Below, in pieces: positions 9,382 to 62,926 of a stretch of DNA of 64,000 nucleotides (positions are counted from its first letter, which is position 1; each line of letters opens with the position of its first letter). Below the pieces are notes generated by a model. The model was not told the DNA's origin. It saw only the letters and a list, made by a program, of their open reading frames with translations, and searched no databases. Source of the stretch: a virus; IMG/VR virus record IMGVR_UViG_3300037067_022543; one strand, written 5' to 3'. Position numbers and translations under genes: made by a program.

Positions 9382-9382
9382 C

Positions 9383-11249: not shown

Positions 11250-11274
11250 TTAATTAAACCTTTCATAAAACAAC

Positions 11275-11721: not shown

Positions 11722-11832
11722 TTTATTATTTCCTTTAATAATTTATTCATCTAAAGAATACAAACATTTAACATCTAAATCACCAACATTGCTGAAAATA
11801 TCTTTGTGTAGTAAAAATTAACATAATATCAT

Positions 11833-12210: not shown

Positions 12211-12221
12211 AAATACTCCAT

Positions 12222-14061: not shown

Positions 14062-15233
14062 AATTTACTTTCAATTTTTCCGCCACTAGTAATCTCTATA
14101 AATTCACATTTTTCCTGAAATTCTTTTAAGTTTTTAGCCCCAACATAAGAAAATGATGATTGCAAGCCATGTTTAATATGTTTTAAAATATGTTTAACAT
14201 GCCCCCTAAAAGGAGCCATTTTTGCAACTCCTTCTACAAATTCATTTGCATTTCCATTTGAAACTTTATTTTCTCCGCTAGCAGAACCAGCATAAACTTT
14301 ATAAAACTCCCCTCTTTCTCCTGTAAAAACATTTCCTGGAGTTTCTGTTGATCCGGACAACATGGAACCGAGCATAACTGCATGAGAATATTTTAAGCTC
14401 TTTGCAATATCTCCTATTGATGACATGCCTCCATCTGCAATTATCTTTATGTGTTTAATGCCTTGTCTTATAAACTCTTCATTAATTGATTCCAAAGCAT
14501 AAAGTTGAGGAACACCAACCCCCGTATTTTTCCTCGTTAAGCAGGCCGAACCAGGACCGACGCCGCACTTAATACAATCTGCTCCCCATTCTGCAATATC
14601 GTAAGCACCTTCTGGAGTTGAAACATTACCTGCTATAATATATATATCTTTTAATCCTTTTTCTTTTATCCATTTTAATATATTTTTCATTACTAAAGAA
14701 TGGCCATGGGCAATATCTATGCAAAATATTTTTGCTCCAGCTTCGTATAAACTGTCAAACCTTTTTTTATCTTCATCTTGAACTCCTATTGAAACTCCAA
14801 TTTCATGGTCTTTATTACAAATACTTTTAATATTAGGATGTATATTAAAAGTACTACTATTAAAACTACTACAAGATTCTGAATATTTATCTTCATCTTT
14901 TAAAATAACAGTTGAGTTTCCTAAACTAATAGTATTACTTATAAGCCCTTCATTAACAGAAAAATGGTTTTTAACTTCTAAAAAATCTTCTACAGCTTGT
15001 TCAATACTGCAAAATCTATGTAAAATTCCCATACCGCCATTTTCAATCATTGCTATTGACATTTTAACGCCGCAAATAGTCTTCATATTTGCTGCTATAA
15101 TTGGCAAATTTATCTTAAAAAATCCAAAATCACTAGATAAATCAACACTTCTTCTAGACTCTATTTCAGAATATTTGGGGACAATTAGTACGTCACTAAA
15201 TGTATATGCTTCTTTATTTATTTTTTTATCCAT
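14058..15233 (-). CDS. IMP dehydrogenase / GMP reductase family protein (no CBS insert)
   Basis: CIDIAHGHS and the catalytic loop GVGPGSACLTR of the IMPDH/GMPR TIM barrel. Confidence 0.8.
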   Translation of the reverse strand: MDKKINKEAYTFSDVLIVPKYSEIESRRSVDLSSDFGFFKINLPIIAANMKTICGVKMSIAMIENGGMGILHRFCSIEQAVEDFLEVKNHFSVNEGLISNTISLGNSTVILKDEDKYSESCSSFNSSTFNIHPNIKSICNKDHEIGVSIGVQDEDKKRFDSLYEAGAKIFCIDIAHGHSLVMKNILKWIKEKGLKDIYIIAGNVSTPEGAYDIAEWGADCIKCGVGPGSACLTRKNTGVGVPQLYALESINEEFIRQGIKHIKIIADGGMSSIGDIAKSLKYSHAVMLGSMLSGSTETPGNVFTGERGEFYKVYAGSASGENKVSNGNANEFVEGVAKMAPFRGHVKHILKHIKHGLQSSFSYVGAKNLKEFQEKCEFIEITSGGKIESKL

Positions 15234-28901: not shown

Positions 28902-29660
28902 TTAAATCCATTGTTCAATATAATTTCTGTCTTGTGTAAAAATTGGAATTGTGCGATCTTCAATAATATCTGTTCTGAAAACATCGTGATCGCTAATGTT
29001 TTTTTTAGCCTGTTTTTTATATAAGCAAATGCCGCGTTTCTTCCATATGTCTATATTATTCCAATTTATGCCTTTTTCTTTAAAAAGTTTTTCCTGAACT
29101 TGATCGTTATTTAATCCAGACATTTCCTTATGAGAAAAGTTTGCTTGTCCAAGTCCCTGAATACTATTTCTGGTACAATCATTTTGTCTCCAAATAAAAT
29201 AGTTGCAAACTTCTTCTTTAGGCAATACAAAGGCTCTGGAATCAAATAGTCCACAATCACTAATTTCTGGTGATTTTAAATTTAGAAATATAAAACATTT
29301 ATTAAAGCATATAGTAGCAATGGATGCAGATACACTAACAATTTTTTGAAGATTCTTTTCAAACCAAGCTTGCGTGTAAATATTTTCGTAATCTGTTGCC
29401 AAAATGCTGATTTCGTCAGATTGAATATAAGCTAACTTTGAACCTTGAATTTCTTCAAGCAAACCCCTGCCTGTATCAACCATAGCCATTGCAAAATCTT
29501 CATCGAAAGGCTTTTGAAATCCACTCCTTTGTGTAAAACTATGAAACGCCTTTCCATCAACTCTAATAATTAAAGGCATTCTACGAGTAAGATAATGAAG
29601 ATTAACTTCCTCGTACTGCTTCATACGATTTCCTAAAGAATCTGTTTCTATTGTTTTCAT
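28902..29660 (-). CDS. Thg1-like protein (tRNA-His guanylyltransferase / 3'-5' polymerase family)
   Basis: LIIRVDGKAFHSF, IQSDEISIL and FDSRAFVLP match Thg1/TLP catalytic motifs. Confidence 0.8.
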   Translation of the reverse strand: MKTIETDSLGNRMKQYEEVNLHYLTRRMPLIIRVDGKAFHSFTQRSGFQKPFDEDFAMAMVDTGRGLLEEIQGSKLAYIQSDEISILATDYENIYTQAWFEKNLQKIVSVSASIATICFNKCFIFLNLKSPEISDCGLFDSRAFVLPKEEVCNYFIWRQNDCTRNSIQGLGQANFSHKEMSGLNNDQVQEKLFKEKGINWNNIDIWKKRGICLYKKQAKKNISDHDVFRTDIIEDRTIPIFTQDRNYIEQWI

Positions 29661-35094: not shown

Positions 35095-35171
35095 TGGTGA
35101 TCTCGGAGGAATTCGAATCCCCAATTTCTTCCACGTCAAGGAAGCACATTAACCAATTATGTTACGAGACC
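35095..35171 (-). tRNA. tRNA-Val (anticodon GAC), CCA encoded
   Basis: Manual fold: acceptor GGTCTCG/CGAGATC, anticodon arm CTTCC-TTGACGT-GGAAG, T-arm GGGGATTCGAATTCCTC. Confidence 0.65.
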
Positions 35172-36214
35172 AAACTGGTGCTCCTGGCAGGAATTAAACC
35201 CACTTCTACGGGATGAGAACCAGTCGTTTTATTCGGTAAACTATAGGAGCCAAAATTCTTAATCCTATCTAAAAAACTGTCCAATTTGTTTTCTGGATAT
35301 AAATCTGACGGTATTATTTCTATAAATTTTAAATTGTTGTCTTTTACTATTTTGCGTTTGAGTTCTACTACTTTATCATATTCTTCCACCTGCCCTATTA
35401 AACCGAAATATTCTACCAATATATTATAATATGGTAAATAAAAATCACAATCCATATTGCTATTGGGATATTTTTTATTTCTTTCGTGATTTATTTTATT
35501 TATAAAAAACCAATCGTCTACTATTTTTTCAGATATGCTGTCTGCCATATGATTGTCTTGACATTTCAATCTAGTTTTTTGAAATTTACTTTTGTTTGGT
35601 TTTAATCCGCAAAAACTAACGGCTTTATTCCATGTTCCAAAAAATCTTATGGTAGCAGACAATAATCTTATTAAACAATCTCTTTTTTGAGGAGTTCTAT
35701 TAATTTTTTGAGATAATTGTATTATTTTATTAATTACTTCGTCTTTGGTATATGGAGAAAATCCAAACTGATATATTTTTCCGCATTTTGCAGAACAACA
35801 CTTGATTCTTTTTCTCGATGGATGGAATTTTTTTCCACAAATAACGCAGTTCATTTCTTCAAGCATTATTTTATTTTGTGTTTTAAGATATTTTCTAATT
35901 GAATTTCTAGTTTTTTCTGATATTTCTTTTCTTTTTTCATCACTAAAAATTCTATTTTTATTATTTACTACTGCTGCACAAGAATTGCAACAATAAAATT
36001 TCTTTGTTTTACTTCTTTTATAATCACAATTTCCAACCACAATATCTTTTCCACAGTTATAACATTTTAGATTTTTAGATTTTGTTTTAAATTGTATTCT
36101 GCATTCTTTGCTACAAAAAAACTTCCATTTTTGTTTATTCGACCAATTATAATTCCTAGCTGGCATACCAAAATGATGGTGGCAGAAAGAACACTCGACA
36201 TCAATATCTACCAT
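35162..36214 (-). CDS. N-terminal zinc-ribbon repeats + C-terminal DUF559/Vsr-like endonuclease-fold protein
   Basis: Multiple CxxC pairs; DCDFYLPYYNILVEYFG matches the DUF559 core. The ORF as called reads through tRNA-like 35176..35251, so the true 3' end is uncertain. Confidence 0.5.
   Translation of the reverse strand: MVDIDVECSFCHHHFGMPARNYNWSNKQKWKFFCSKECRIQFKTKSKNLKCYNCGKDIVVGNCDYKRSKTKKFYCCNSCAAVVNNKNRIFSDEKRKEISEKTRNSIRKYLKTQNKIMLEEMNCVICGKKFHPSRKRIKCCSAKCGKIYQFGFSPYTKDEVINKIIQLSQKINRTPQKRDCLIRLLSATIRFFGTWNKAVSFCGLKPNKSKFQKTRLKCQDNHMADSISEKIVDDWFFINKINHERNKKYPNSNMDCDFYLPYYNILVEYFGLIGQVEEYDKVVELKRKIVKDNNLKFIEIIPSDLYPENKLDSFLDRIKNFGSYSLPNKTTGSHPVEVGLIPARSTSLVS
35176..35251 (-). tRNA. 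tRNA-like element (possible Glu, anticodon CTC) with acceptor and anticodon-stem mismatches and a non-canonical T-loop
   Basis: Manual fold GCTCCTA...CAGGAGC A CCA; T-loop TTTAATT lacks C56. Confidence 0.3.
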
Positions 36215-36312
36215 AAGAATAACTCCTTTTATATAATTATTCTTTAATATGTCGGCAATCTCCTACTTGAACCTTCAATTATTTGTATTATTTTTTAGGA
36301 CGGTTCAAAAAA

Positions 36313-36390
36313 TGGTGTCGCCATCGGGACTCGAACCCGAACTTTTCAGGATGAAAACCTGATGTGTTAGCCAGTTACACCATGGCGACA
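36313..36390 (-). tRNA. tRNA-Glu (anticodon TTC), CCA encoded
   Basis: Acceptor TGTCGCC/GGCGACA, anticodon arm TCAGG-TTTTCAT-CCTGA, T-arm GGGTTCGAGTCCC. Confidence 0.7.
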
Positions 36391-36395
36391 TAAGT

Positions 36396-36487
36396 TGGTC
36401 AGAGGGGTGGGATTTGAACCCACGATTACCTTGCGGTTTTCCTCCTGCGCCCAAGGCAGGCGTTCTACCAAGCTGAACTACCCTCTG
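36396..36487 (-). tRNA. tRNA-Pro-like (anticodon TGG, G37) with a 20-nt variable region containing a GNRA-capped hairpin (ACC-GCAA-GGT)
   Basis: Perfect acceptor CAGAGGG/CCCTCTG, Pro-type D-loop AGCTTGGTA, anticodon arm CCTGC-CTTGGGC-GCAGG, T-arm GTGGGTTCAAATCCCAC; variable region AGGAAAACCGCAAGGTAATC. Confidence 0.55.
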
Positions 36488-36495
36488 TACAAAAT

Positions 36496-36572
36496 TGGCA
36501 CTCCTGACAGGACTTGAACCTGCACAATCCCACGTTCGTAGCGTAGTGCCCTTCCAATTAGGCCACAGGAGC
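36496..36572 (-). tRNA. tRNA-Arg (anticodon ACG), CCA encoded
   Basis: Acceptor GCTCCTG/CAGGAGT, anticodon loop CTACGAA, T-arm GCAGGTTCAAGTCCTGT. Confidence 0.7.
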
Positions 36573-36606
36573 ATTATACATTAAATTTTCAAATATCAAT
36601 AAAAAA

Positions 36607-36686
36607 TGGTGGGCATGGTGGGATTTGAACCCACGACCTTCTGTGTATCAGACAGACGCTGCTAAAACCAGCTGAGCTACATGCCC
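36607..36686 (-). tRNA. tRNA-Ile (anticodon GAT), CCA encoded
   Basis: Acceptor GGGCATG/CATGCCC, anticodon arm TCTGT-CTGATAC-ACAGA, T-arm GTGGGTTCAAATCCCAC. Confidence 0.7.
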
Positions 36687-36729
36687 ATAATTATGCATTA
36701 TTAAGTTTTCAAATAACAAAACTAAAAAT

Positions 36730-36804
36730 GGTCCGGACCATCCAGAATCGAACTGGAGCCTTCAAGTTCACAGCATGACGGGCTACCACTACCCCATAGT
36801 CGGC
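36730..36804 (-). tRNA. tRNA-His-like (anticodon GTG) with genomically encoded G-1; one C.C mismatch in the acceptor stem
   Basis: Anticodon arm TCATG-CTGTGAA-CTTGA, T-arm TCCAGTTCGATTCTGGA, G immediately 5' of acceptor CCGACTA; the 3' side is TGGTCCG-G-ACCA. Confidence 0.45.
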
Positions 36805-36813
36805 ATCAAAAAG

Positions 36814-36900
36814 TCGGGAAGGTCGGATTTGAACCGACAATGCATTATTTCAGCTCCTGCTTCCAAAGCAGGTCGAGTACCAGTTATCTTCTACTTCCCG
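36814..36900 (-). tRNA. degenerate tRNA-like element (anticodon TGG, A37; irregular D-arm; 17-nt variable region), no CCA
   Basis: Acceptor CGGGAAG/CTTCCCG and T-arm GTCGGTTCAAATCCGAC are intact; the anticodon stem CCTGC/GCAGG is identical to that of tRNA-Pro-like 36396..36487. Confidence 0.35.
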
Positions 36901-46596: not shown

Positions 46597-47220
46597 TCAT
46601 ATATTGTCAAATAATCTTGGATAATCATCTTCTTCTTCGCCATTTTCTGATTCTATTTGTTGTTCGTCTACTTTCTTTAAATCACTAATAATTCCCCTAT
46701 CAATATCTACTTTTTCTAACCATTCCTTCATGTTGTTTAACCAAATCTGAACATGATCCGTTGATGCTTTATGGGGAAATTTGAAAGAATAGTCTAAAGC
46801 TCCATTCGGATATCTCCCTTTTGGATGCATTATAGTAGGAGTAGTACTTGTAAAAACAATATTATCGTATACTACCTTAATGTATTCAATAGTTATTTCT
46901 GCATATTTAGAAACTAATTTAAGTAAACGAAGACGACACTCTTTTATATTATCTGACATTATATCAACACCATAAATTGTTTGAAGTGCCCGCAATGGAT
47001 CGTGCCCCTTTTTGAGTTTGCGTTTGAGAACTTCCACCAGCATATTGCCGTTGCCACAAGCTGGATCACAACATGTTTTATCTTCTTCCCACACTTCTTC
47101 AGGAAGCTTGTCTAGCATTTCGTTGATAAGAAATAGGGGAGTAAAATCTTCCGCCGTTTGCTTTTTTCTTTTTTTACGACGCTCATAGTTGGTTGTTTGC
47201 ATTGTTATATTTCTTTTCAA
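46597..47220 (-). CDS. N6-adenine methyltransferase-like protein (motifs X, I, II present; motif IV degenerate)
   Basis: TTG start; FTPLFLINEM (motif X), CCDPACGNGNMLVEV (motif I), IYGVDI (motif II); no NPPY. Confidence 0.5.
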   Translation of the reverse strand: MKRNITMQTTNYERRKKRKKQTAEDFTPLFLINEMLDKLPEEVWEEDKTCCDPACGNGNMLVEVLKRKLKKGHDPLRALQTIYGVDIMSDNIKECRLRLLKLVSKYAEITIEYIKVVYDNIVFTSTTPTIMHPKGRYPNGALDYSFKFPHKASTDHVQIWLNNMKEWLEKVDIDRGIISDLKKVDEQQIESENGEEEDDYPRLFDNI

Positions 47221-47222
47221 TT

Positions 47223-48431
47223 TTAATCAATAAACTTTTTCCAAAAATCTTTGCGAAAATATGGAATAATGTTACGATCAACCACTCCTATTCCTGCTGT
47301 ATTTTTAGTTGTCGTTGCTCTATTTATTTTTTGGAATTTTTCAGATGTTAATGCTTTTACTATTGCGTCGAAATTTTCTACTCTATCAACAATTGCAAAC
47401 GCCCACTGCGTCATTCCATATTCTCCTTTGGTGTCTTTTATAATTCCAAAATTACAACCATCTCCAATAATAATCTTGGGAATTTCAAAATGCCCCTTTT
47501 CAATTGTATTGGAATAATAATATTTAGCTTCGTTTTTAACATTTATTGAATACACACAAGGATATATAAATTTATTTATTTTTTCTTTACTCATCCATTT
47601 TTGTCTACCTTCATATGCAGAAAAACTATGTAGAATTTTAACTTTTTCTTCATCGTCTTTGGCAATCAATGACGAAACTTCATTTAACATAGAATTGGGA
47701 ATGAAAGGCATTTTTTGTAGATCAATTATGCTTTTTAGTCCATTTCTGTCAACAACTGTAGTTTTAATAGGATCGGTGGAATTTCTAATTATATACCAAT
47801 CATAACATGTTGAAGTACCAAAAATTTCCTGCCCATCTTTATTATCGTGCATTTCCAGATAAATAATTTGAAGTTTTGTCATTTTTTTACCAATTTTTTC
47901 TGCAAAAAAACCAGCCCCGCGCCAACCGGGCGGGTTAACAGAAACAACATACCCATTGTCTTTAACTAATGCAAAAGATTTTTCTACAAACCCGTTCCAT
48001 ATTGAATCTTTAGAACCATTTGCTGCTTGATAAGGAGGATTCATAAGAATAAAATCAAATTTTTTACCACCGAAAATTTTCATATTTTTAATTCCTTTTT
48101 TATTAAACTTAACAATTTTATATTGAACTCCATAAAAATTAGGATCTTTTAGCAAATTAACCTTATGTTGACAATCTGTAATAAACCAAATCTTATTGCC
48201 CATTATACCATAATCTTTCAACAATATTTCAATGAACTCAAGATTAAATACTGCAAAATCCTTATCAATAATAGTAGTGTTATTTTTTAGTTCCCCAATA
48301 ATCTGATGACAAAGACAATACGGAGTAAAAACATTTTGTATATTATTTTTGGGACATTTATTAATTCTTTCAATTTGAAACTGCAATTCTTCCTGCCAAA
48401 CTTTTTCAATTTCATTTTTATAAATTTCCAT
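47223..48431 (-). CDS. gamma-class N6-adenine DNA methyltransferase (NPPY), candidate MTase(-TRD) component of a Type ISP/IIG-like RM module
   Basis: VFTPYCLCHQIIGEL (motif X) and ILMNPPYQAANGS (motif IV). Confidence 0.65.
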   Translation of the reverse strand: MEIYKNEIEKVWQEELQFQIERINKCPKNNIQNVFTPYCLCHQIIGELKNNTTIIDKDFAVFNLEFIEILLKDYGIMGNKIWFITDCQHKVNLLKDPNFYGVQYKIVKFNKKGIKNMKIFGGKKFDFILMNPPYQAANGSKDSIWNGFVEKSFALVKDNGYVVSVNPPGWRGAGFFAEKIGKKMTKLQIIYLEMHDNKDGQEIFGTSTCYDWYIIRNSTDPIKTTVVDRNGLKSIIDLQKMPFIPNSMLNEVSSLIAKDDEEKVKILHSFSAYEGRQKWMSKEKINKFIYPCVYSINVKNEAKYYYSNTIEKGHFEIPKIIIGDGCNFGIIKDTKGEYGMTQWAFAIVDRVENFDAIVKALTSEKFQKINRATTTKNTAGIGVVDRNIIPYFRKDFWKKFID

Positions 48432-48448
48432 AATTGACCTTTTTTATA

Positions 48449-51055
48449 TCAAGACATTTTATTTAATAACATTTCAAGAGTGTCTTTGCCACATTTCCAT
48501 GCTGTTTTTCCATTCATGTTTTGCCCAGCAACCACAGAAGCAGCTCCACTGGGAGACTTAAATGAAATATCTTTTACGACAATCCATTTTGAATTTATAA
48601 AACCTTCTTTAATAAGTCTTTCTCTTTCGTTTAAATAGCTTTTAGAAATCCCCATATTAGTATTAGAACTGATCGAAGATCCATTAAGAAGAACAAAATT
48701 GCCTTTGCGGACTACTCCCTTGGCCACTATATTTTTACGAGGAAGGGTTAATATAAAATCATTAGATGCATTAATTGCTGAAAATCCACTAAATTTAGGC
48801 TTAATTTGGTCTATATCACCAACCAATTTTGACAATCTAGAGCGAATTTTAGATCTCTCTATTTCTATTTTTTTATTAAAGTCATTTTGTTTTTTTTTGT
48901 CTTCAATAGAATTTAACACTTGGCAATTAAATTCATATTCAAATAATTCTGGTTCCTTATGTATTTTTTCAATCCTGGGTGGAGCAACAATAATCATCTT
49001 GCCGTCATAAGATTCTTCATTATTAATATTTTCATAAGGACAATAACCTAGGTTGTTTTGAATTTGCTCTACTATTGTTTCTATATTGTTTCTATTAATG
49101 TCTGTAAATCCCAAATACCTAGGCATGATAACATAACAGAAGGGCTTAAAAAATTTACCGCTATAACAATCTGATGGTAGTATCTCTTTCAATAGAATTC
49201 TTTCGCGATCAAAAGGATGTATTCTCTCCCCTCTACCAACAGTTTGGTGCGAAGTTATGTCACTCATATCTCCAAATGGAAGAATAGCGTTAATTCCTGG
49301 AACATCCCACCCTTCTCCTACCATAGCAATATGTAAAATAATAGCTTTTTCATCTGGTTTTTTTTCTAACAACTCTTCCATAAACTTGTTGATATTTTCT
49401 TCATTTGATGGATATTCTACACCATCTCTATAAATCTTCCAGTCACTAGAAATAGCATAAATAGCAACATCTGGTCTATCCTTCTGATATTTCATAAATG
49501 TTTTAGATTTTATAATTTCAGAATACGATTGACCGCCGGAACATTTAACCAACATTTTTATTGCATTCAAATTACTATTAATAGAATGCTTTTCGTTAAG
49601 TTTTTCTACTTCTTGATATGCTCCCCAAACAATGTGGGCATTAATTTCGGCATTCTTTGTAATTTCTTCCTGTGTAGCAGTATGAATATTAATATGTTCT
49701 CCAAGAACAGCGTTGGTAACTGTAAAATGGCAAACCATAGGTCTTACAATTTTACCACAATCAATCATTTCTCTAGGGGACCTTCTGGAAATAACCGGAC
49801 CAAATAACTTGATATTATCCATTCCTTCTCCGTCTAAAACTGGAATGTCTGGAGTTCCACTAAGCCCTTGGGTAGCAGTATAATAAACTATTATTGGGCA
49901 TAAACGCAATGCATTTTCAGAAACCACAATTTTTCTCTTATCCTCTGGGATACTTCTGCCCTTAACTATATTATGTGCTTCATCACAGTTCATGAGTTTA
50001 AATTTAATCTCTGCTTTTATAATTTTAAAAACAGAATGATAAGTTGTAAAAACAAAAACAGGACCATTAGCATCATTAATAGCCTTATTTAATTCTATAA
50101 TATTTGTAGTGTTAACTACATCTTCTATTCCGCGAGACTTTCTTGCTTCATTATCGTTATCATAATCACCAGAAGTAAAATTAATAATTGTACAATTAAA
50201 AATACCGTACTGCATTAATCTATCAATAATCTTGCCGATTCCTTGTTTCCCCAATGTAATTCTTGGAACAACAAAAAGAATTTTAGAGCAAGGATCATTA
50301 TGGATATGTTTTTTAATTAGCCTAATCGAGTGTTCCATCATAATTTCGCTTTTGCCAGTCCCGGTTGGCCAAATGACTTGAAATTTTCCACTTTCAATTT
50401 TGAGTAAGTCTCTTATTGCAGTTTCTTGATATTCATCAGGAATAAATGGCTCCTTCAATGGTGTTATTTCTTTTTTGGCATCTTCAAGAGAATTCTTATA
50501 AGACAACCAAAAATCAATATTATTATTGACCATATTTTTGATTTCTTCTATGCCATAAACTTGAGTTCTTTCGGAATCCACAAAATTCTTTTTAGTGTTT
50601 TCGTGAAAATCTTTAGCATCAGTAAAAATATTAAATATCTTTTCGTTTGAAGAAAGATCAAATCCATCAAGATAATCAGACTGAGCAAAATATTCTGTCA
50701 CCTGACTATTTCCATCTGTCAAAAATTCTTTGCCATTAAAGGCTAAAAAAGTAGTTACAACACAATTACCCCTATTACCTTGTCCATGAGCTTTATATTT
50801 ATGCCTTACAGAATTTATTGTTTCATAATTTTTAATTCCGATAATATCATCAAAATAAAGAATCATTGCTTCAACAAATGACTGAAAACCGCTTTCCGTA
50901 TAGTTCTGGGGATTTTTATCAAATACTGATAGATTTTTTAAGTTTTGACTAAATTTTTCATAAGTGTAATCATTTGGGATTAGTGCTTCTGCTCTTGAAA
51001 CAGTGCCATTATATAATTTAAACTTAAAGACATGACGAGTTTTTATTGTTTTCAT
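48449..51055 (-). CDS. SF2 helicase/translocase (DEAH box; Type I/III/ISP restriction-enzyme-like ATPase)
   Basis: VIWPTGTGKSEIM (Walker A), LMNCDEAHNI (DEAH), QTVGRGERI (motif VI). Confidence 0.8.
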   Translation of the reverse strand: MKTIKTRHVFKFKLYNGTVSRAEALIPNDYTYEKFSQNLKNLSVFDKNPQNYTESGFQSFVEAMILYFDDIIGIKNYETINSVRHKYKAHGQGNRGNCVVTTFLAFNGKEFLTDGNSQVTEYFAQSDYLDGFDLSSNEKIFNIFTDAKDFHENTKKNFVDSERTQVYGIEEIKNMVNNNIDFWLSYKNSLEDAKKEITPLKEPFIPDEYQETAIRDLLKIESGKFQVIWPTGTGKSEIMMEHSIRLIKKHIHNDPCSKILFVVPRITLGKQGIGKIIDRLMQYGIFNCTIINFTSGDYDNDNEARKSRGIEDVVNTTNIIELNKAINDANGPVFVFTTYHSVFKIIKAEIKFKLMNCDEAHNIVKGRSIPEDKRKIVVSENALRLCPIIVYYTATQGLSGTPDIPVLDGEGMDNIKLFGPVISRRSPREMIDCGKIVRPMVCHFTVTNAVLGEHINIHTATQEEITKNAEINAHIVWGAYQEVEKLNEKHSINSNLNAIKMLVKCSGGQSYSEIIKSKTFMKYQKDRPDVAIYAISSDWKIYRDGVEYPSNEENINKFMEELLEKKPDEKAIILHIAMVGEGWDVPGINAILPFGDMSDITSHQTVGRGERIHPFDRERILLKEILPSDCYSGKFFKPFCYVIMPRYLGFTDINRNNIETIVEQIQNNLGYCPYENINNEESYDGKMIIVAPPRIEKIHKEPELFEYEFNCQVLNSIEDKKKQNDFNKKIEIERSKIRSRLSKLVGDIDQIKPKFSGFSAINASNDFILTLPRKNIVAKGVVRKGNFVLLNGSSISSNTNMGISKSYLNERERLIKEGFINSKWIVVKDISFKSPSGAASVVAGQNMNGKTAWKCGKDTLEMLLNKMS

Positions 51056-51057
51056 TT

Positions 51058-51792
51058 TTATTTACTAACCATATTATGAAACGTTTTCCAGAAAATAGGA
51101 TTATCGCCACAAACAGACTTTAAAGACAAAATTTCAGTTGGGTCATTATGGTCATTGTTCTGCATATAAATTCCGCCAGATTCCTCTTGAGCTATAAATT
51201 TTAATCTTCCATGAAAAAATCCTCCAAGAGTCTTCCAATTTATATCGTGAGCAAGTGTAAAAACGAACATTTGATCTTTGCTAGTCTTCCCAACTTTATA
51301 CCTAAATTTTGAAGTCCAATGAAAAGTTCTTAATCTTCGCCTTGTATTGTCTAAACTTTCTGACCAATTGCCATATTTAATTTGAACAGTAACAGTTCTT
51401 TCGTCTTTTGTTATTCCAGTTCCGTCTACACCAACATCTTGATCCTCTCCATCAGTTGTAAAAAACGGTTCATAATTATAAATACCCCAAGTTCTACCAT
51501 ATGCTTTCAAAACATATTCGCCAAAAACTTCAGTTACATCGCCCTTAAAATGTTTTGCCCCTTCTTCACCGAATTTATCAAAAAATTCTACTGTTTCTGA
51601 CTTGCTAATAATTTTAGCATATTTTTCTATTCTACTAATAAAACAAGATAAAGTACTACAATCTTCCAATAGCTCATTCCAACAACTAATTGCCGTTCTT
51701 CTGGGATGAATAATTTCTATTGTAGCAATATCTTTGTCTATCAAAATATTATCTGCAGTATTTTCTGAATTTTTTTTTATTTGTTTTTTCAT
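51058..51792 (-). CDS. PD-(D/E)xK (Mrr-like) restriction endonuclease-domain protein
   Basis: DVGVDGTGITKDERTVTVQIKYG core; stop-AA-ATG junction to the helicase gene. Confidence 0.5.
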   Translation of the reverse strand: MKKQIKKNSENTADNILIDKDIATIEIIHPRRTAISCWNELLEDCSTLSCFISRIEKYAKIISKSETVEFFDKFGEEGAKHFKGDVTEVFGEYVLKAYGRTWGIYNYEPFFTTDGEDQDVGVDGTGITKDERTVTVQIKYGNWSESLDNTRRRLRTFHWTSKFRYKVGKTSKDQMFVFTLAHDINWKTLGGFFHGRLKFIAQEESGGIYMQNNDHNDPTEILSLKSVCGDNPIFWKTFHNMVSK

Positions 51793-51973
51793 TTGTTATT
51801 CCGGGTATCATTACTTATTTATGTAATATAAAGTATTATAAAAAAATAAAAATGTCAAGAATTATTTTAACAAAAAAGAATTATTTCGGATTTTGGATCT
51901 ACATCTTTAAAACTTGTAATATTCACAAATTAAAACATTGGGGCATCTATCATATTTCATCTTTTACCCCTCA

Positions 51974-55208: not shown

Positions 55209-55581
55209 TTCTAATACCTTTTTTTATTTTATCTTCTATATATTCTACAGGTATTTTATATTCTTTTGCTAATTTTATTTCTGCTTGAACACCCAGTGAT
55301 TTATTCCATCCCCTTATTTTGAAAACAATTAACCTATCACATTTAGATATAAACTTTTCATCAAAATCCAGCCAATATTTCCAATCTGTAGGCATTTTAT
55401 ATTTTCCAGCCATAACATGACCATAAGCAATTGGAGAAAAAACAAAATTTCCTTTTCTAATAAGATAAGCAGTTAATCTAAGTACTTTCTCAAATCTTTC
55501 ATGCATTACTTTTTTAGATGTGTGAGTATATGGGCTTGCAAGATATATTAATTCTTTATCATTTTTATTATTCATAATCAT
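55159..55581 (-). CDS. nucleoside 2-deoxyribosyltransferase-like protein (DUF1937-like)
   Basis: LIYLASPY ... CDRLIVF ... GWNKSLGVQAEIKLA. Confidence 0.45.
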   Translation of the reverse strand: MIMNNKNDKELIYLASPYTHTSKKVMHERFEKVLRLTAYLIRKGNFVFSPIAYGHVMAGKYKMPTDWKYWLDFDEKFISKCDRLIVFKIRGWNKSLGVQAEIKLAKEYKIPVEYIEDKIKKGIRIDKCSCLFKETSYEKV

Positions 55582-56420
55582 TCAAATAAATTCTTATTGG
55601 TTAATTGATAATTTTTCCACAAACTTTCAACTTTAGTCTTAGGTCTTTCTTTTCCATCTACAGTATGAACATCGAAATCTACCCTAATCCAATTATTGTT
55701 CTTTAATAACCTTTCATATTCATCATTATTATACCCAGAAAGAAGAATTTTTGATTTAGAATTAATAATTTTATCAATAAAAATTTTCTGCTTTTCGTTA
55801 TCCATATCAACCTTATACCTTACATTTGTTCTTCTGGAATGGTGATATGGTGGATCAGCATAAATAAATACATTTTCTGAGTTATATTCGTCTACCATCT
55901 TTAAGGCATCTTTATTAGTTATAATAACTCTTGAAAGCCTCTGATGAACCGGTTCAAGATTATCTACTGTTGACAACATATCTGAAATACTTTTAGACAT
56001 GTTCCTTCTAATAATTAAATTCATTGAAAATCCGCCTATGCCATTTCTAGATGTTCTATTAACAATGAAGTACTTATAAGCCCTGTCAACAATTGAAAGA
56101 CTATCTCTTCTTAATGACTGAATATATTCTTTACGCAATTGTTCTGAATAATATGTTAAATCACATTTTTCTTTGAAAATTTTAAAAAGAAGTGGATCTG
56201 AAATTGATTTAAATAAAGAATAAACATTTTCTTCTAAATCATTATATATTTCAATAGGAGTATTTGGAGATTTTTGAAATAAAATTGAGCCCCCACCACC
56301 AAAAGCTTCCAGATAAGTATCATATGTATCATCAGAAGGAAAGTGCTTTATAATTTCCTTATACATACCACCTTTACCGCCAAAATATCTAATGGGTGAA
56401 TTCATTTTTATATTATACAA
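55578..56420 (-). CDS. Dam-like (D12 class) N6-adenine DNA methyltransferase
   Basis: RYFGGKGGM N-terminus, YLEAFGGGGS (motif I) and YADPPYHH (motif IV). Confidence 0.75.
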   Translation of the reverse strand: MYNIKMNSPIRYFGGKGGMYKEIIKHFPSDDTYDTYLEAFGGGGSILFQKSPNTPIEIYNDLEENVYSLFKSISDPLLFKIFKEKCDLTYYSEQLRKEYIQSLRRDSLSIVDRAYKYFIVNRTSRNGIGGFSMNLIIRRNMSKSISDMLSTVDNLEPVHQRLSRVIITNKDALKMVDEYNSENVFIYADPPYHHSRRTNVRYKVDMDNEKQKIFIDKIINSKSKILLSGYNNDEYERLLKNNNWIRVDFDVHTVDGKERPKTKVESLWKNYQLTNKNLFE

Positions 56421-56428: not shown

Positions 56429-57259
56429 TTAATCAAACAAATTGATCTTAGCATTTTCTATTCTATCAACTGCTTTGTCTATATATCCTTTATCCCTCTC
56501 TATGCCAATAAACTTTCTCTTAGTCTTAATACAAGCCACTGCAGTTGTTCCTGATCCCATAAAAGGATCCAATACGACATCGCCAACAAAGCTTCCAAGT
56601 TTAATACATCTATATGGGATAGACAAGGGAAATGGGGCTGGATGATCAACTTTTCTTTCAGGAGGGATATTCCATATCTGCATACCAAATTCTTTAAATT
56701 CTTCATTATTCAGTGAAGATAGCTTTCTTAAATCATCACTTATATTTCTAAATCCATTCTTTTTGAACCACAAGATGTATTCAACTTCTTGAACAATTGG
56801 TATTGAGCCTGGGCTACCAAATCTTCCATAACTACCCAACATCCTTAAAGAACCACCAGTAGCATGTTTATTCCTTATTTTTTTCCACAAAATCATTTCT
56901 TTATAATCTATTTTTTTAGAAAGATAAGAAATTAATTCGGCGTGAGTTGGTAAAGTTATATTCTTTTTTAATTCGCTTTTTAGAGATGTATGAGAATCAT
57001 CTATATTAATCCATAAGTGACCTGCATTTTCCAAAATATTTATACAATAATCAAAAATACCATAAAGCATTTTTAGATAAGATTGATAATTTACAAGAAG
57101 ATTATCCCATTTTCTTATATCTTCATATTCTCTGTTGACAAAATAAGGTGGGGATGTAACAACAAGATTAACTTTATTATTTAGTTGGGGAAGAATTTCA
57201 AAACTATCTCCCAAATACAATGCTATATCATTTTTACAATAATACGGAGTAATTGACAT
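56429..57259 (-). CDS. beta-class DNA methyltransferase (N4-cytosine or N6-adenine)
   Basis: VVTSPPYF (motif IV) precedes DPFMGSGTT (motif I). Confidence 0.75.
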   Translation of the reverse strand: MSITPYYCKNDIALYLGDSFEILPQLNNKVNLVVTSPPYFVNREYEDIRKWDNLLVNYQSYLKMLYGIFDYCINILENAGHLWINIDDSHTSLKSELKKNITLPTHAELISYLSKKIDYKEMILWKKIRNKHATGGSLRMLGSYGRFGSPGSIPIVQEVEYILWFKKNGFRNISDDLRKLSSLNNEEFKEFGMQIWNIPPERKVDHPAPFPLSIPYRCIKLGSFVGDVVLDPFMGSGTTAVACIKTKRKFIGIERDKGYIDKAVDRIENAKINLFD

Positions 57260-58060: not shown

Positions 58061-59983
58061 TTATTTCTTTTTATCATCAACCATTTCAAAATCAGCATCA
58101 ATTACATCACCTTGTGCATCTTTTTTGTCTTTAATGTTATCAGATGTTTGTTCAGATGTTTTTTCTTTAGAATTCTTTGCTTTTTCATATAATTCAGAAG
58201 AAACAGAATGCATAGATTCATTAAGTGATTCCATTTTTTCCTTAATTGTCTTAACATCTTCAGATTTAATGGCAGATTTCAATTCTTCTATTTTCTTTTC
58301 AACATCTATTTTTTTATCAGAAGAAATCTTTTCAGAATTATCTTTCAGCATTTTCTCTGTTTGATAAACAACATTTTCTGCTATGTTCTTTGTTTCGATT
58401 TTTTCCCTTGAATCCTTATCTTCTTGAGAATGTTCTTCTGCATCTTTAACCATTTCTTTAATTTCTTTTTCAGTCAATCCACTAGATGCTGTTATGGTTA
58501 TCTTTTGTTCCTTATTTGTTCCCAAATCTTTTGCAGAAACATGTAAAATACCATTAGCATCTATATCAAATGCCACTTCTATTTGAGGTGTTCCACGCAT
58601 AGCAGGAGGAATACCATCAAGATGAAAACGCCCTAATGATTTATTACCTTTTGCCATTTGTCTTTCGCCTTGCAAAACATGTATTTCTACGGCAGGTTGG
58701 TTGTCAGCTGCAGTACTAAATATTTCTGACTTGCGTGTTGGTATGGTGGTATTTCTCTCAATCAATTTTGTATAAACTCCACCCAATGTTTCTATCCCTA
58801 AAGAGAGGGGAGTAACATCTAACAGCAACACATCTTTTACATCTCCCTTAATAATACCTCCTTGTATAGAAGCCCCAACTGCAACTACTTCATCTGGATT
58901 AACGCCTTTATGAGGTTCTTTTCCAAATGTCGCTTGAACAACATCTTGAACTTTAGGCATTCTGGTCATTCCTCCAACCATAACAACTTCATTAATATCT
59001 TTATAATCCAAACTAGAATCTTTCACGCATTTTTTGACTGGTGAAAGAGTTCTGCTAATTAAATCATCAACTAGTTGTTCTAGTTTAGATCTGGACAAGT
59101 TAATATTTAAATGTTTTGGTCCAGAAGCATCAGCAGTAATAAAAGGAAGATTAATATCAGTTTGTTGAGATGAAGATAACTCACATTTAGCTTTTTCAGC
59201 AGCTTCCTTCAATCTTTGCAAAGCCATACTATCTTTTGACAAATCAATGCCGTTATCTTTTTTGAATTCAGAAGTCAACCATTGGATAATAAGTTGATCA
59301 AAATCATCTCCACCAAGATGGGTGTCACCATTAGTAGATTTAACTTCAAAAACTCCATCTCCTATATCCAAAATAGAAATATCAAAAGTTCCACCACCAA
59401 GATCATAAACAGCAATCTTTTCATCCTTCTTTTTGTCCATACCATAGGCTAAAGAAGCAGCAGTTGGCTCATTAATTATTCTTAACACTTCAAGACCAGC
59501 AATCTTTCCAGCATCCTTTGTGGCTTGCCTCTGACTATCATTGAAATATGCTGGCACAGTTATAATTGCTTGTGTAACACTTTCCCCCAAATAAGATTCT
59601 GCATCTGTTTTCAACTTTTGCAAAATCATAGATGATATTTCAGGAGGAGAATAAGTCTTGCCATCTACTTCAACATGGGCATCACCATTTTTTGCTTTTA
59701 CTATTTTATATGGTACTAATGATATTTCGTGAGCTACTTCATCATATTTTCTTCCCATAAACCTTTTAATTGAATAAACAGTGTTTTTGGGGTTAGTCAC
59801 TGATTGCCTTTTAGCTGATTGCCCAACAAGCCTTTCTCCGCTTTTAGTGAATGCTACTATTGAAGGAGTTGTTCTACTGCCTTCTGCATTTGGAATAACA
59901 ACAGGTTGCCCGCCTTCCATAACAGCCATACAGCTATTTGTAGTTCCCAAGTCTATACCTATAACCTTATTCGATTTAGCCAT
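58061..59983 (-). CDS. dnaK: Hsp70 chaperone DnaK (bacterial type)
   Basis: [33 protein letters not shown]; full-length 640 aa; TATAAT and AAGGAA upstream. Confidence 0.9.
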
Positions 59984-60622: not shown

Positions 60623-60700
60623 TGGTAGGTGCGGAGGGATTTGAACCCCCAACCCCCGAGATATAAGCTCGGTGCTCTAACCAGTTGAAGCTACGCACCC
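60623..60700 (-). tRNA. tRNA-Ile (anticodon TAT, AUA-reading), CCA encoded
   Basis: Acceptor GGGTGCG/CGCACCT, anticodon arm CCGAG-CTTATAT-CTCGG, T-arm GGGGGTTCAAATCCCTC. Confidence 0.6.
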
Positions 60701-60712
60701 ATATTTCTCAAA

Positions 60713-60787
60713 TGGCTGCCCGACCAGGATTTGAACCTAGACTAACACGTTCAGAGCGTGTCATGCTGCCAATTACACTATCGGGCA
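60713..60787 (-). tRNA. tRNA-Gln (anticodon CTG), CCA encoded
   Basis: U1:A72 acceptor TGCCCGA/TCGGGCA, anticodon arm ACACG-CTCTGAA-CGTGT. Confidence 0.65.
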
Positions 60788-60793
60788 ATAAAG

Positions 60794-60865
60794 TTGTCCC
60801 GCCTGGAATTGAACCAGGTCTAGAACGTTCAAAGCGTCCTGTGCAGACCTTTACACCACGGGACA
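60794..60865 (-). tRNA. tRNA-Gln (anticodon TTG), no CCA
   Basis: Acceptor TGTCCCG/CGGGACA, anticodon arm GGACG-CTTTGAA-CGTTC, T-arm CCTGGTTCAATTCCAGG. Confidence 0.65.
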
Positions 60866-60870
60866 ATAAA

Positions 60871-61239
60871 TCATATTTTAACATTTAACTCTTCAATATC
60901 AAAATTATGCCTAAACGATTGTTTTTTTAATTTTTCTTCTTCATCTTTTAGTTTTTTAACTTTTTCTTCTGCAAATTCTTTTCTCATAAAATAGCCATGT
61001 TCCATATAATCAATCCATCTTCCTCTACTATCTTCACAGTTTTCTTTAACCCTATATATCTTGAAAGATCCACCTTGAATAAAATGATCTACTAATTCAT
61101 TTATTGAAGCACAGTTGAGACAACCTTCATTATGGCCGTTATAGCTAGTATTTAAGGTCTCCCTCAATACATCTCTTATTGTAACTGGCTTATCTATTAT
61201 AATACCTATTTCTTTTTTACTCTCAACTATTGTTTCCAT
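60871..61239 (-). CDS. hypothetical protein (122 aa)
   Basis: Minus-strand ORF directly downstream of tRNA-Asp. Confidence 0.45.
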   Translation of the reverse strand: METIVESKKEIGIIIDKPVTIRDVLRETLNTSYNGHNEGCLNCASINELVDHFIQGGSFKIYRVKENCEDSRGRWIDYMEHGYFMRKEFAEEKVKKLKDEEEKLKKQSFRHNFDIEELNVKI

Positions 61240-61274
61240 ATTATTTCTCCTTTTTAATTATTATTTTATAAAGT

Positions 61275-61348
61275 TGGCGGGGCCGATGGGAGTTGAACCC
61301 ACGCAGGAAAATAGACAGTTTCCCATTCTACCGTTAAATCACGGCCCC
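61275..61348 (-). tRNA. tRNA-Asp (anticodon GTC), CCA encoded
   Basis: Acceptor GGGGCCG/CGGCCCC, anticodon arm GGAAA-CTGTCTA-TTTCC. Confidence 0.7.
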
Positions 61349-61421
61349 ATTTTTCAAAGAGCATTTGCAATTTTAGTTTAAATAGTCTCAACCACGTAAA
61401 GGTATTGCATATATGAGACCG

Positions 61422-61504
61422 CTCCATCGGTAGGACTTAAACCTACAAACCCTTACGGGCGTCTGGTTAACAGCCAGATGCGGTTATCATTTCGCCACGA
61501 TGGA
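61422..61504 (-). tRNA. atypical tRNA-Asn-like (anticodon GTT) with a 15-nt variable region forming a CCC-GTAA-GGG (GNRA) hairpin; G18G19 and C56 not conserved
   Basis: Acceptor TCCATCG/CGATGGA, anticodon arm TCTGG-CTGTTAA-CCAGA, T-arm GTAGGTTTAAGTCCTAC. Confidence 0.45.
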
Positions 61505-61532
61505 ATTAAATTTTTCAAAGAACGCCACACGC

Positions 61533-61568
61533 AAAAAAACCTTCAGACATCTGCCTGAAGGCTTTTTA
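61533..61568. terminator. intrinsic terminator-like hairpin (CCTTCAG-N8-CTGAAGG + T5), A-tract on the other side
   Basis: 7-bp perfect stem. Confidence 0.55.
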
Positions 61569-61595
61569 AGACTTAACAACAAGAAAGCAGTTAAG

Positions 61596-61620
61596 CCAAA
61601 GCCTTCACGCTTTGGTTTAT
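61596..61620. terminator. second hairpin (CCAAAGC-cttcac-GCTTTGG + TTTAT)
   Basis: 7-bp perfect stem. Confidence 0.45.
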
Positions 61621-61715
61621 ATCCTGATTATCTTGTATTATATTTTTCATTTTATTACTTTTAATCTAACTATCACATACAATTGAATTTATACTATTAT
61701 TCTTTTGATTCTCTA

Positions 61716-61743
61716 TTTATACCAAAAAATCCTTTATTGTCAA
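61716..61743 (-). promoter_or_regulatory. sigma70-like promoter (TTGACA-N16-TATAAA) with the shared upstream motif TTAAAATAATTC
   Basis: Minus strand reads TTAAAATAATTCTTGACAATAAAGGATTTTTTGGTATAAA. Confidence 0.55.
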
Positions 61744-61767
61744 GAATTATTTTAAAATATTTTATTC

Positions 61768-62007
61768 TTAATCTTTTTTAGTATCTTTTCTCCAATCTGT
61801 TGTTCCTTTTACTTTATCAACAATTGATGCACAATAAGCCCCAGGATTACCCTTATCTTTATTTTTATCAATACACTCATCAATAAATCCGTGCTCCTTT
61901 GGGCTATGTTTGTATTTTTTCTTTTTCTTTGCTTCCTCTATTTTTAACCATCCTGTTTTTTCACCAATGAATTCCCATTGACTTTTAGATAATTTAATTG
62001 TTGCCAT
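61768..62007 (-). CDS. leader-family small protein (MATIKLSKSQWEFIGEKTGWLK...)
   Basis: N-terminus matches the MKITLSKQQWEFIGNKTGW family. Confidence 0.55.
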   Translation of the reverse strand: MATIKLSKSQWEFIGEKTGWLKIEEAKKKKKYKHSPKEHGFIDECIDKNKDKGNPGAYCASIVDKVKGTTDWRKDTKKD

Positions 62008-62091
62008 ATTTATCTCCCATTTTGTTTTATAAATACAGTAGACTATTTATTCAATACTTGAGATGGCTAATCCTTTATGAAAATAGCATAT

Positions 62092-62742
62092 TTAAATACT
62101 TTTTTGACATGGATTAATTATCATACTTATTGTGCTTCTAGAACAATCAAAGTGTTTTGCAATATCTATTTGCCTCATTCCATCTTTATACATTTTAAAA
62201 ACTTCGCTTCTACTAAGCGGAGTCCTTTGTTCTTTAAGAGTTATAACTTTTTCATAAATTATTTTTTTCAATTCATTAAATTTATCTACATTTATATGCT
62301 CTTGCCTATGACAATTGGCACAAATAATTTCGCAATTATTTATCTCTTCCATAAAAACATCCAAAGAAACTTTTTTATTTCTATTTATAATATCACTAAC
62401 AATAAAATTTTTTTTCCCAAAATGATGAAAATCTAAACTAGCTAAATTTTCACCTCTGTATCCGCACCTATGACACTTGGTAAATTTATTATCTAAAAAT
62501 ATTTTGGCTTTCTCGTCGTTATGTCTACTGCTAACGCAATGTGTTTCTTTATGACAATTAACACATAATAAAATACATTTGGATATTTCTTTTTTTAAAA
62601 TACTCCATCTATAATGTTTTAATTTGGCTATTATATTTAATTTGTTGGAATTATGGTGAAAATCCAAACAAAAAATATCAGAATTACCGCATTTACTGCA
62701 TTTTCCTCCCAATAAGTTTATGGCTTTTATTTTCTTGCCCAA
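62092..62742 (-). CDS. HNH homing-endonuclease-like protein with C-terminal HTH
   Basis: CSKCGNSD...FHHN...CVNCH and, later, CANCHRQEH; C-terminal IDIAKHFDCSRSTISMIIN is HTH-like. Confidence 0.65.
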   Translation of the reverse strand: MGKKIKAINLLGGKCSKCGNSDIFCLDFHHNSNKLNIIAKLKHYRWSILKKEISKCILLCVNCHKETHCVSSRHNDEKAKIFLDNKFTKCHRCGYRGENLASLDFHHFGKKNFIVSDIINRNKKVSLDVFMEEINNCEIICANCHRQEHINVDKFNELKKIIYEKVITLKEQRTPLSRSEVFKMYKDGMRQIDIAKHFDCSRSTISMIINPCQKSI

Positions 62743-62850
62743 ACAAGAACATAACGCATATCTTCTTTATTTAATGTCATTTTGTTAAACTCCCTTTTAA
62801 ATATTTATTCATAACGCAGTTGAACAAATCCTTTTTATTTTTTATAAAAA

Positions 62851-62926
62851 TGGCAGAAGCGGCAGGCCACGATCCTGCAACTGAGGATTTGGAGTCCCCT
62901 ATTTTGCCCACTTAAACTACGCTTCT
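62851..62926 (-). tRNA. tRNA-Trp (anticodon CCA), CCA encoded
   Basis: Perfect acceptor AGAAGCG/CGCTTCT, anticodon arm GGGGA-CTCCAAA-TCCTC, T-stem GCAGG/CCTGC with an unusual loop ATCGTGG. Confidence 0.55.

Follow-up and report, generated by a model that had tools for sequence, protein, structure and literature searches.

Gene layout of the cassette

The stretch of DNA analysed here, called the window below, is 64,000 nt long and comes from the IMG/VR virus record IMGVR_UViG_3300037067_022543; all positions are window positions. Within it we have studied four consecutive genes on the minus strand whose products resemble the parts of a Type ISP restriction-modification enzyme. The first open reading frame, ORF1 (51058..51792, 244 aa), encodes a stand-alone nuclease subunit of the Mrr family of PD-(D/E)xK nucleases, predicted to be active. 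ORF2 (48449..51055, 868 aa) encodes a superfamily 2 (SF2) ATPase with three regions: residues 1 to ~195 (50471..51055), which alignment to ORF1 suggests to be an inactivated paralogue of its nuclease; the ResIII/DEAH ATPase motor at residues ~200–670 (49046..50458); and, from Pfam and PADLOC, a C-terminal accessory domain with DUF4357 at residues ~761–856 (48488..48775). ORF3 (47223..48431, 402 aa) carries the catalytic half of an Eco57I-type N6-adenine methyltransferase followed by a putative C-terminal target-recognition domain. ORF4 (46597..47220, 207 aa, or 201 aa from an alternative ATG start at 47202) is a methyltransferase protein made of the N-half only, with motifs X/I/II/III, and is the proposed S-adenosylmethionine (SAM)-binding partner of ORF3. 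The coordinates, strand and lengths of all four ORFs agree with those of an earlier reading made from the letters of the DNA alone (the sequence-only reading). That reading described a module of three ORFs; we find four genes, with ORF4 the constant partner of ORF3.

The ORF1/ORF2 junction is TAA-AA-ATG, the stop-AA-ATG arrangement already noted, that between ORF2 and ORF3 is TGA, 17 nt and ATG, and that between ORF3 and ORF4 is TAA-AA-TTG with the alternative ATG 18 nt on. The set is bounded by gaps of 181 nt before ORF1 and 92 nt after ORF4. With such tight junctions inside and these gaps outside, the four genes look like one unit, an operon-like cassette. A scan for promoters and terminators gave a number of sites not above that in shuffled sequence. 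The 181-nt gap upstream of ORF1 contains, on the minus strand at 51835–51858, perfect copies of TTGACA and TATAAT with only 12 nt between them; this spacing is below that needed by standard sigma-70, and the pair was missed by the consensus scan.

The ORF1 nuclease

ORF1 has no Pfam match and its homologues form only ~20 clusters in a collection of 5.8 billion sequences. The residues invariant in the ORF1 alignments are F82-K-G-D85, E88, F90, E92, D119, G121, D123, Q137 and K139. In the active site described for LlaGI and Mrr, motif I is E38 with an adjacent Phe, motif II is D74-x-G-V-D78, in which a supplementary Asp lies four residues ahead of the catalytic Asp with a Gly link, and motif III is Q92-x-K94 (PMC2790908). 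The equivalents in ORF1 are E88-V-F90, D119-V-G-V-D123 and Q137-I-K139, and the Asp-to-Gln spacing is also 14 residues. That is, the Mrr-family nuclease signature of Type ISP enzymes (Glu and Phe, D-x-G-h-D, Q-x-K) is found in ORF1. Structural comparison gives LlaBIII as the top fold match. Searches of PDB sequences with ORF1, ORF2 and the family profiles returned chance or generic P-loop matches only, and the classification of these two proteins therefore rests on predicted structures. All the nuclease motifs are kept in each of the 15 stand-alone ORF1-type proteins, and the loss of the catalytic D...(D/E)xK residues from ORF1, chosen beforehand as the observation to look for, was not seen: the Mrr/LlaGI residues are present in every homologue. 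As judged by these residues, ORF1 has the whole active site of a Mrr-family nuclease and is predicted to be active.

The ORF2 motor and its N-terminal domain

The description of ORF2 as a DEAH-box SF2 ATPase stands. Pfam finds ResIII (4.9e-13) and DEAD (5.1e-07), together with DUF4357 (2.9e-13, residues 811–854), and the DEAH box is D358, E359 and H361. The ATPase motifs (Walker A, DEAH, TAT and Q..GR..R) are invariant both in near homologues and across ~20–25% identity, so that the SF2 helicase-like ATPase with intact motifs that is a feature of Type ISP enzymes is present in ORF2. The closest solved structure is that of the Type ISP enzyme LlaBIII, which comes top by two independent methods and with a clear margin over repair and remodelling helicases. 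The helicase does not therefore fall into a family outside restriction-modification, such as a repair SNF2, an outcome that the sequence-only reading had allowed for.

Residues 1 to ~195 of ORF2 can be aligned both to ORF1 and to the nuclease domains, still intact, at the N-terminus of the helicases at loci L007 and L008. In ORF2, neither the second Asp of motif II nor the motif III QxK remains, the sequences at these places being KAHG and TTFLA. The nuclease motifs are lost in all 15 of the helicases that have a separate ORF1 gene and kept in all three of those without one (L007, L008 and L108). From the alignments, the N-terminus of ORF2 is a dead copy, an inactivated paralogue, of the ORF1 nuclease. 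The complementary pattern of active and dead domains across the loci is most simply read as descent from a fused nuclease-helicase in which the nuclease was duplicated, the free copy remaining active and the attached copy being kept for a structural role.

For the C-terminal tail (residues 761–856), PADLOC gives a match to PDC-S14 (1.7e-22), a candidate defence family. The tail is sporadic, being found in the window, in P0002/L091, in L092 (weakly, at 29% identity, E 8e-05) and in the distant L007, and it is absent from most orthologues. In the literature, DUF4357 is a domain fused to McrB, GmrSD and GIY-YIG proteins. The AlphaFold2 model of ORF2 is unreliable over this tail.

A proposed methyltransferase in two parts

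ORF3 is one of a broad family of Eco57I-type proteins, ~390 aa in length; most of its members occur alone in phages or viruses, as methyltransferases with no neighbouring helicase. Its Pfam Eco57I score of 24.7 bits is just below the 25.3-bit cut-off. The NPPY motif, residues 131–134 (48030–48041), is invariant at all four positions (N131, P132, P133 and Y134), and many invariant positions are found in the ~270 residues after it. Usual members of the family have EVFTP (motif X), FLDPCMGKGTF (motif I) and NPPY. When ORF3 is compared with homologues such as P0105, P0120 and P0146, a 7-residue gap falls exactly at their DPCMGKG; the DPxxGxG loop is gone, and in its place ORF3 and its cassette orthologues have a conserved xFN[LVMI]EF. 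All 18 of the separately encoded cassette ORF3 orthologues are without motif I, which is kept in both of the methyltransferases that are not separate cassette genes, those of L108 (single chain) and L017. Loss of motif I is confined to the helicase-linked ORF3 lineage. The initial description of ORF3 as a gamma-class NPPY methyltransferase is thus right as regards NPPY and the near-cut-off Eco57I match, but the enzyme is incomplete. On its own ORF3 does not have the functional motif I of a gamma-class single-chain N6-adenine methyltransferase, and the Type ISP combination of motif I and NPPY in one domain is not found in it. After the catalytic half there is a conserved domain of ~230 aa, common to the single-chain relatives, which is a putative target-recognition domain. 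Type ISP enzymes have, C-terminal to the methyltransferase, a single domain of this kind that reads an asymmetric site of 6–7 bp.

ORF4 consists of the half that ORF3 lacks and of nothing more. Pfam N6_Mtase matches it over profile positions 20–98 only, and its motifs are X (F26-T-P28), I (D52-P-A-C-G-N-G58, 47047–47067), II (Y-G-V-D) and a III-like NG(A/S)LDY, after which the protein ends. F26, T27, P28, D52, G56 and G58 are invariant in the ORF4 family. Alignment of ORF4 with the ORF3 family by hhalign (97% probability, E 1.1e-10) places ORF4 residues 18–96 on ORF3 residues 27–98, with the gap in ORF3 at DPACGNG. ORF4 had been described as a methyltransferase-like protein with motifs X/I/II and a degenerate motif IV. 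The motifs were correctly seen; there is no decayed motif IV, ORF4 being one of a family that consists of the N-half only (719 representatives at E<1e-10, mostly 130–210 aa, with only motifs X/I/II/III). We found no role assigned to this family of half-methyltransferases. The profile searches proposed at the outset gave ResIII in ORF2 and N6_Mtase in ORF4, with Eco57I in ORF3 just under the cut-off and no Pfam match for ORF1.

Wherever the flank of a cassette can be seen, the ORF3-like gene is followed downstream by an ORF4-like gene, and the ORF4-type partners in view all keep motif I as DP[AS]CG[ND]G (DNSCGDG in L009). The invariance of NPPY in ORF3 and of motifs X and I in ORF4 implies selection on catalysis and on cofactor binding. 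ORF3 and ORF4 together make up one set of motifs, on which basis a two-subunit methyltransferase is proposed, and we infer that the two would assemble as one methyltransferase and target-recognition unit.

Other relatives divide the enzyme differently. Some ORF3 relatives consist of the C-half only and start at motif IV, with the N-half gene either after (L005, L040, L082) or before (L030, L035, L012), and fused, circularly permuted forms also occur in the family (P0266, P0236). The forms seen in the family are thus an intact gamma enzyme, a degenerate N-half with an N-half in trans, a C-half preceded or followed by an N-half gene, and a permuted fusion. One tentative reading, to which we give somewhat less than an even chance, is that the cassette is a snapshot of duplication and fragment complementation, in which the dead nuclease would be a dock for its active paralogue and the methyltransferase a permuted two-gene enzyme with its SAM half in trans. 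If true, this would link single-chain Type ISP enzymes of the L108 kind directly to multi-subunit assemblies like those of Type I.

Several further arrangements were seen. In a large single-chain relative (L058:4061-7846, also L062), NPPY is changed to GNWPFG and an ORF4-like gene with an intact motif I (EPSCGDG) follows directly (L058:7819-8343). The ORF4-like gene after the C-half-only P0136 (L005:4533-4967) has an in-frame TAA in place of Leu (QECR*RLLK, compared with KECRLRLLK), which a point mutation, read-through or an error in sequencing could explain. An ORF4-type module is also C-terminal in two unrelated proteins, P0178 and P0259, one of which has a beta-class-like methyltransferase part (FAGSGS, with DWQW for DPPY) and the other an HNH-like N-terminal part.

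Conservation of the cassette across loci

The set of four genes and their order recur in ~20 metagenomic and viral loci, with helicase identity down to ~25%; from this recurrence in independent loci, the gene set is not due to chance. For the helicase scans a broad alignment (A8) was too divergent to serve as seed, and a narrower one (A6) was used, which found one IMG/VR locus and 19 metagenome loci. In bacterial and archaeal genomes the A6 scan found nothing convincing, the sole match (L090) being a weak one to an unrelated helicase. The order ORF1-ORF2-ORF3-ORF4 is seen in L001/L002, L003, L004, L089, L091–L094, L096, L099, L103 and L105 (L089 and L095 are the same contig). It is kept in L009, where the ORF1 match is weak. 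In L007 and L008 the nuclease is fused to the helicase, and ORF3-like and ORF4-like genes follow. The flanks vary by locus, with PARP, GIY-YIG, HEPN and LAGLIDADG genes at L003 and L004 and not at L001. A methyltransferase is present at every helicase locus with readable downstream sequence, the others ending at a contig edge. A third arrangement is seen in L017, where an active stand-alone nuclease (10680-11264, 194 aa) precedes a helicase (11350-12918, 522 aa) that has no N-terminal nuclease-like domain, and 3 kb upstream of the two is the methyltransferase, its motif I intact.

The ORFs are separate in all the orthologues, from 86% down to ~25% identity, and the junctions between them take the form of 2-nt gaps, 1-nt gaps, 4-nt overlaps and inserts of up to ~900 nt. 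Separation at every level of identity, by junctions of different types, rules out a recent break and the decayed fusion suggested in the sequence-only reading. A programmed frameshift joining ORF3 to ORF4 was also considered and rejected, the spacing between the two varying from −3 to ~900 nt between loci.

Single-chain relatives

One relative with its parts fused is at L108, on a metagenome contig of 116 kb (Ga0075012_10000039), where positions 6797-10546 are one ORF of 1249 aa. Its modules are, in order, a Mrr-like N-domain, ResIII, N6_Mtase/Eco57I and a C-terminal domain like that of ORF3. Module by module it is homologous to ORF1 (27% identity), to the ORF2 core (26%, 1e-40) and to the C-part of ORF3 (35%, 4e-56). 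The nuclease is intact (FKGH..E..E, D-T-G-V-D-G, T-V-Q-V-K), and the methyltransferase has motif I (IDPAMGSG) as well as NPPY. It differs from the cassette in being one chain, with an active nuclease domain, motif I in cis and no half-protein of the ORF4 type; the gene that follows (10555-11880) encodes a complete gamma-class methyltransferase of 441 aa. Read from its sequence, L108 is a homologue of the window system built to the Type ISP plan, and the cassette of the window divides that machine into pieces. This and the linkage at every locus with a visible flank are not what is expected of a solitary Dam-type methyltransferase, the other outcome foreseen in the sequence-only reading.

A second group consists of ~45 proteins of 1290–1610 aa, many of them on giant-virus metagenome-assembled genomes (GVMAG) and large viral contigs, which end in a catalytic half and C-terminal domain of the ORF3 type. 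Examples are L018 3584-7831, L041 930-4922, L019 1975-6801, L028 3746-7816, L014 3608-7843 and L047 3832-7701. Like the cassette they combine a nuclease-like part, ResIII/Helicase_C and an Eco57I methyltransferase, and the methyltransferase half with its C-terminal domain is 30–42% identical to ORF3; unlike ORF3, they have motif I intact. The nuclease-like pattern, E...D...(S/T)xK, was read by eye only. Neither BLASTP nor hhalign found similarity between their N-terminal or helicase parts and ORF1 or ORF2. We have therefore rejected the idea that these proteins belong to the ORF1/ORF2 lineage; only the methyltransferase and C-terminal module is shared. These proteins suggest that single-chain enzymes like those of Type ISP are common in giant viruses.

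Comparison with known systems

LlaGI and LlaBIII, known Type ISP enzymes, have the order of parts seen in the cassette: a Mrr-family nuclease, an SF2 ATPase, an Eco57I/N6_Mtase methyltransferase with NPPY and a C-terminal domain. Their nucleases have E(F), D-x-G-x-D and Q-x-K, spaced as in ORF1. The likeness is one of fold and motifs only, the cassette having no detectable sequence similarity to either enzyme. The differences are that the cassette encodes four polypeptides and not one, that its motor carries an extra, dead nuclease-like domain and the sporadic DUF4357 tail, and that the SAM motifs have a small protein of their own, whose gene comes after that for the catalytic half. The cassette is also viral, whereas LlaGI and LlaBIII are found on a bacterial plasmid or chromosome. 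In the literature searched, no split or virus-borne form of Type ISP is described, nor any account of Type ISP in giant viruses.

Type I enzymes (HsdR/HsdM/HsdS) share with the cassette a build of several subunits, a gamma-class methyltransferase and a PD-(D/E)xK nuclease with an SF2 motor, and the N-terminal fusion of nuclease to motor in HsdR is the arrangement of the L007 and L008 relatives. No match to HsdS or Methylase_S was found in ORF1–4 or the neighbouring ORFs by Pfam, NCBIfam or PADLOC. The cassette nuclease differs from that of HsdR in being of Mrr type, not RecB type, and in being separately encoded; the NCBIfam HsdR score is 18.7 bits, compared with a cut-off of 729 bits, and HsdR structures rank far below LlaBIII for ORF2. 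The layout of Type III enzymes, with a C-terminal nuclease in Res and a beta-class Mod with an internal recognition domain, is not that of the cassette. Type IIG enzymes are fusions of nuclease and methyltransferase that have no motor, and the 868-aa SF2 ATPase is integral to the cassette; PADLOC matches to REase_MTase_IIG are weak and on ORF4 only. Of the earlier label, "Type ISP/IIG-like", we therefore keep the first part, to which the ORF1 signature, the LlaBIII fold and the L108 fusion correspond, and drop the second, which the ATPase motor makes inapplicable.

ORF3 and ORF4 can also be compared with split and permuted DNA methyltransferases, in which the catalytic and cofactor halves are on separate genes. 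M.AquI is a two-subunit split DNA methyltransferase. Jumbo phages have been noted to carry an EcoKI-like Dam that is circularly permuted (PMC7824862). The order of ORF3 and ORF4 (motifs IV to VIII and the C-terminal domain, then X-I-II-III) is the permuted order of beta-like enzymes; in the beta class the order is IV...TRD...X-I, TRD being the target-recognition domain. The pair differs from these in belonging to the gamma-type Eco57I/N6_Mtase families and in the vestigial N-half that ORF3 retains.

Proposed mechanism and alternative explanations

On balance we think it probable that the four proteins act as one methylation-discriminating nuclease-translocase, a multi-subunit, virus-borne variant of Type ISP. 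By analogy with LlaGI and LlaBIII, ORF3 and ORF4 would recognise a site and methylate the virus's own DNA at a specific adenine. At an unmarked site the ORF2 motor would dock on ORF3/ORF4 and translocate along double-stranded DNA at the expense of ATP. ORF1 might sit on the dead nuclease-like domain of ORF2 as a pseudo-dimer and cut once translocation comes to a halt or one complex runs into another, as the known enzymes do. The likely substrates would be unmethylated DNA of the host or of a competing phage. We infer a restriction activity and a role against the host or in exclusion; in any particular biological target of the cassette we have much less confidence.

Several observations weigh against this interpretation. 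No Type ISP coupler domain was identified between the ATPase and the methyltransferase. Solitary "helicase" genes of T4-like cyanophages, with no methyltransferase linked to them, are ~25% identical to the ORF2 core. The nearest solved relatives of the ORF3 family profile are BrxX and M.TaqI, and LlaBIII and LlaGI are not reached by sequence. The C-terminal domain of ORF3 is well conserved across the family, which is unusual for a specificity domain. The N-half of ORF3 is conserved and apparently folded (motif X VFTP, xFNLEF, WFxTD), so that ORF4 cannot just fill the place of absent strands. Finally, ORF4-like genes also follow methyltransferases with an intact motif I (L038, L039, L015, L086, L075 and the large L044 and L058), so ORF4 may do something other than, or more than, supply SAM binding; we reject, as a full explanation, that it solely complements enzymes without motif I.

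Some of these points suit a different view, that the genes are neighbours and not partners: ORF3/ORF4 would be a protective, anti-restriction methyltransferase, and ORF1/ORF2 a separate nuclease-helicase for recombination, repair or replication forks, in a cluster of DNA-metabolism genes. A UvrD-type helicase lies directly downstream of the cassette, a 5'-3' exonuclease and two further methyltransferases are encoded elsewhere in the window, the ORF3 family is mostly solitary and the ORF2 core is like the solitary cyanophage helicases. We nevertheless regard this view as unlikely, since the four genes travel together under changing flanks down to ~25% identity, all three activities are in one chain in L108, ORF1 and ORF2 are closest to a restriction enzyme and not to repair enzymes, and ORF3 has lost motif I only in the helicase-linked lineage. 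A rather less probable alternative makes the cassette a reader of methylation like the Type IV systems, with ORF3 as a dead methyltransferase that reads sequence or N6-methyladenine, DUF4357 sensing modified DNA, and the nuclease and motor attacking modified foreign DNA. Mrr is itself modification-dependent (PMC2790908), ORF3 is without the SAM loop, and DUF4357 both occurs fused to McrB, GmrSD and GIY-YIG proteins and matches PDC-S14. Yet DUF4357 is missing from most orthologues, the NPPY of ORF3 and the SAM motifs of ORF4 are invariant, as in an active enzyme, the fused L108 has a complete methyltransferase, and LlaGI and LlaBIII, with the same Mrr-type nuclease, cut unmodified DNA.

The DarB protein of phage P1 combines methyltransferase and helicase domains, and by comparison with it the helicase and methyltransferase of the cassette might shield the virus's own incoming or replicating DNA from a host Type I enzyme, the nuclease serving some other purpose. 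The composite family phrog_16 (see below) would make helicase-methyltransferase fusions common in phages, but the nuclease active site is strongly conserved and part of every cassette, the closest structures are restriction enzymes, and no similarity to DarB was seen, no search aimed at it having been made; we think this explanation improbable, and slightly more so than the methylation reader. Least credible by far is that the genes are pseudogene fragments of a single-chain gene recently broken. The 2-nt gaps at ORF1/ORF2 and ORF3/ORF4, with neighbouring ORFs in different frames, might give that impression; against it are the invariant catalytic motifs, the separate ORFs with varied junctions in every orthologue from 86% to ~25% identity, and the relationship of ORF1 to the ORF2 N-domain, which are paralogues and not two halves of one domain.

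The carrier virus

The window has a G+C content of 27–36%, and a single strand carries almost all of its genes. Its minus strand bears 13 tRNA genes in two clusters (35095-36900 and 60623-62926), including two for tRNA-Pro(TGG) and two for tRNA-Ile. Other genes encode a full-length Hsp70/DnaK homologue (58061-59983, 2.8e-273), an inosine monophosphate dehydrogenase (IMPDH)/GMP reductase (14058-15233), a BNR sialidase-like protein (10221-11249) and a tRNA-His guanylyltransferase (28902-29660). These four are unusual cargo and point to a very large virus. The heavy load of methyltransferase genes noted earlier is borne out by two that are adjacent, at 55578-56420 (phrog_56, 8.1e-54) and 56429-57259 (phrog_67, 1.4e-57). 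The phrog_16 family ("DNA helicase") is composite, with ORF2 matching at positions 260–597 and the methyltransferase at 56429-57259 matching at positions 826–910, which implies that there are helicase-methyltransferase fusions among its members.

An identical ORF2 protein is recorded on a 103-kb contig, and near relatives of the cassette are on contigs of 186 kb (IMG/VR) and 148 kb (metagenome). Among cultured phages there is no DNA-level match to the 6-kb cassette region and no close one. ORF1 has no tblastn match in phages, and the only phage match to ORF3 is in an uncultured phage of 484 kb. We read the carrier as a large virus, probably like a jumbo phage.

Significance

Type ISP enzymes are defined as single polypeptides and serve as models for the coupling of ATP-driven translocation to cutting. 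The cassette differs from them in its four-part form, in the dead copy of the nuclease on the motor and in a methyltransferase that is apparently split in two. A conserved four-subunit relative would give the parts of the machine in separable form: a free nuclease, a motor with a dead dock, and the catalytic and cofactor halves of the methyltransferase. Routes of fusion and fission between Type I, ISP and II systems have been proposed (PMC6158711), and the cassette and its relatives would supply natural intermediates both for these and for the circular permutation of methyltransferases. For the biology of large viruses, the cassette would add a translocating restriction enzyme to their weapons, with a possible use in degrading host DNA or in excluding rival phages.

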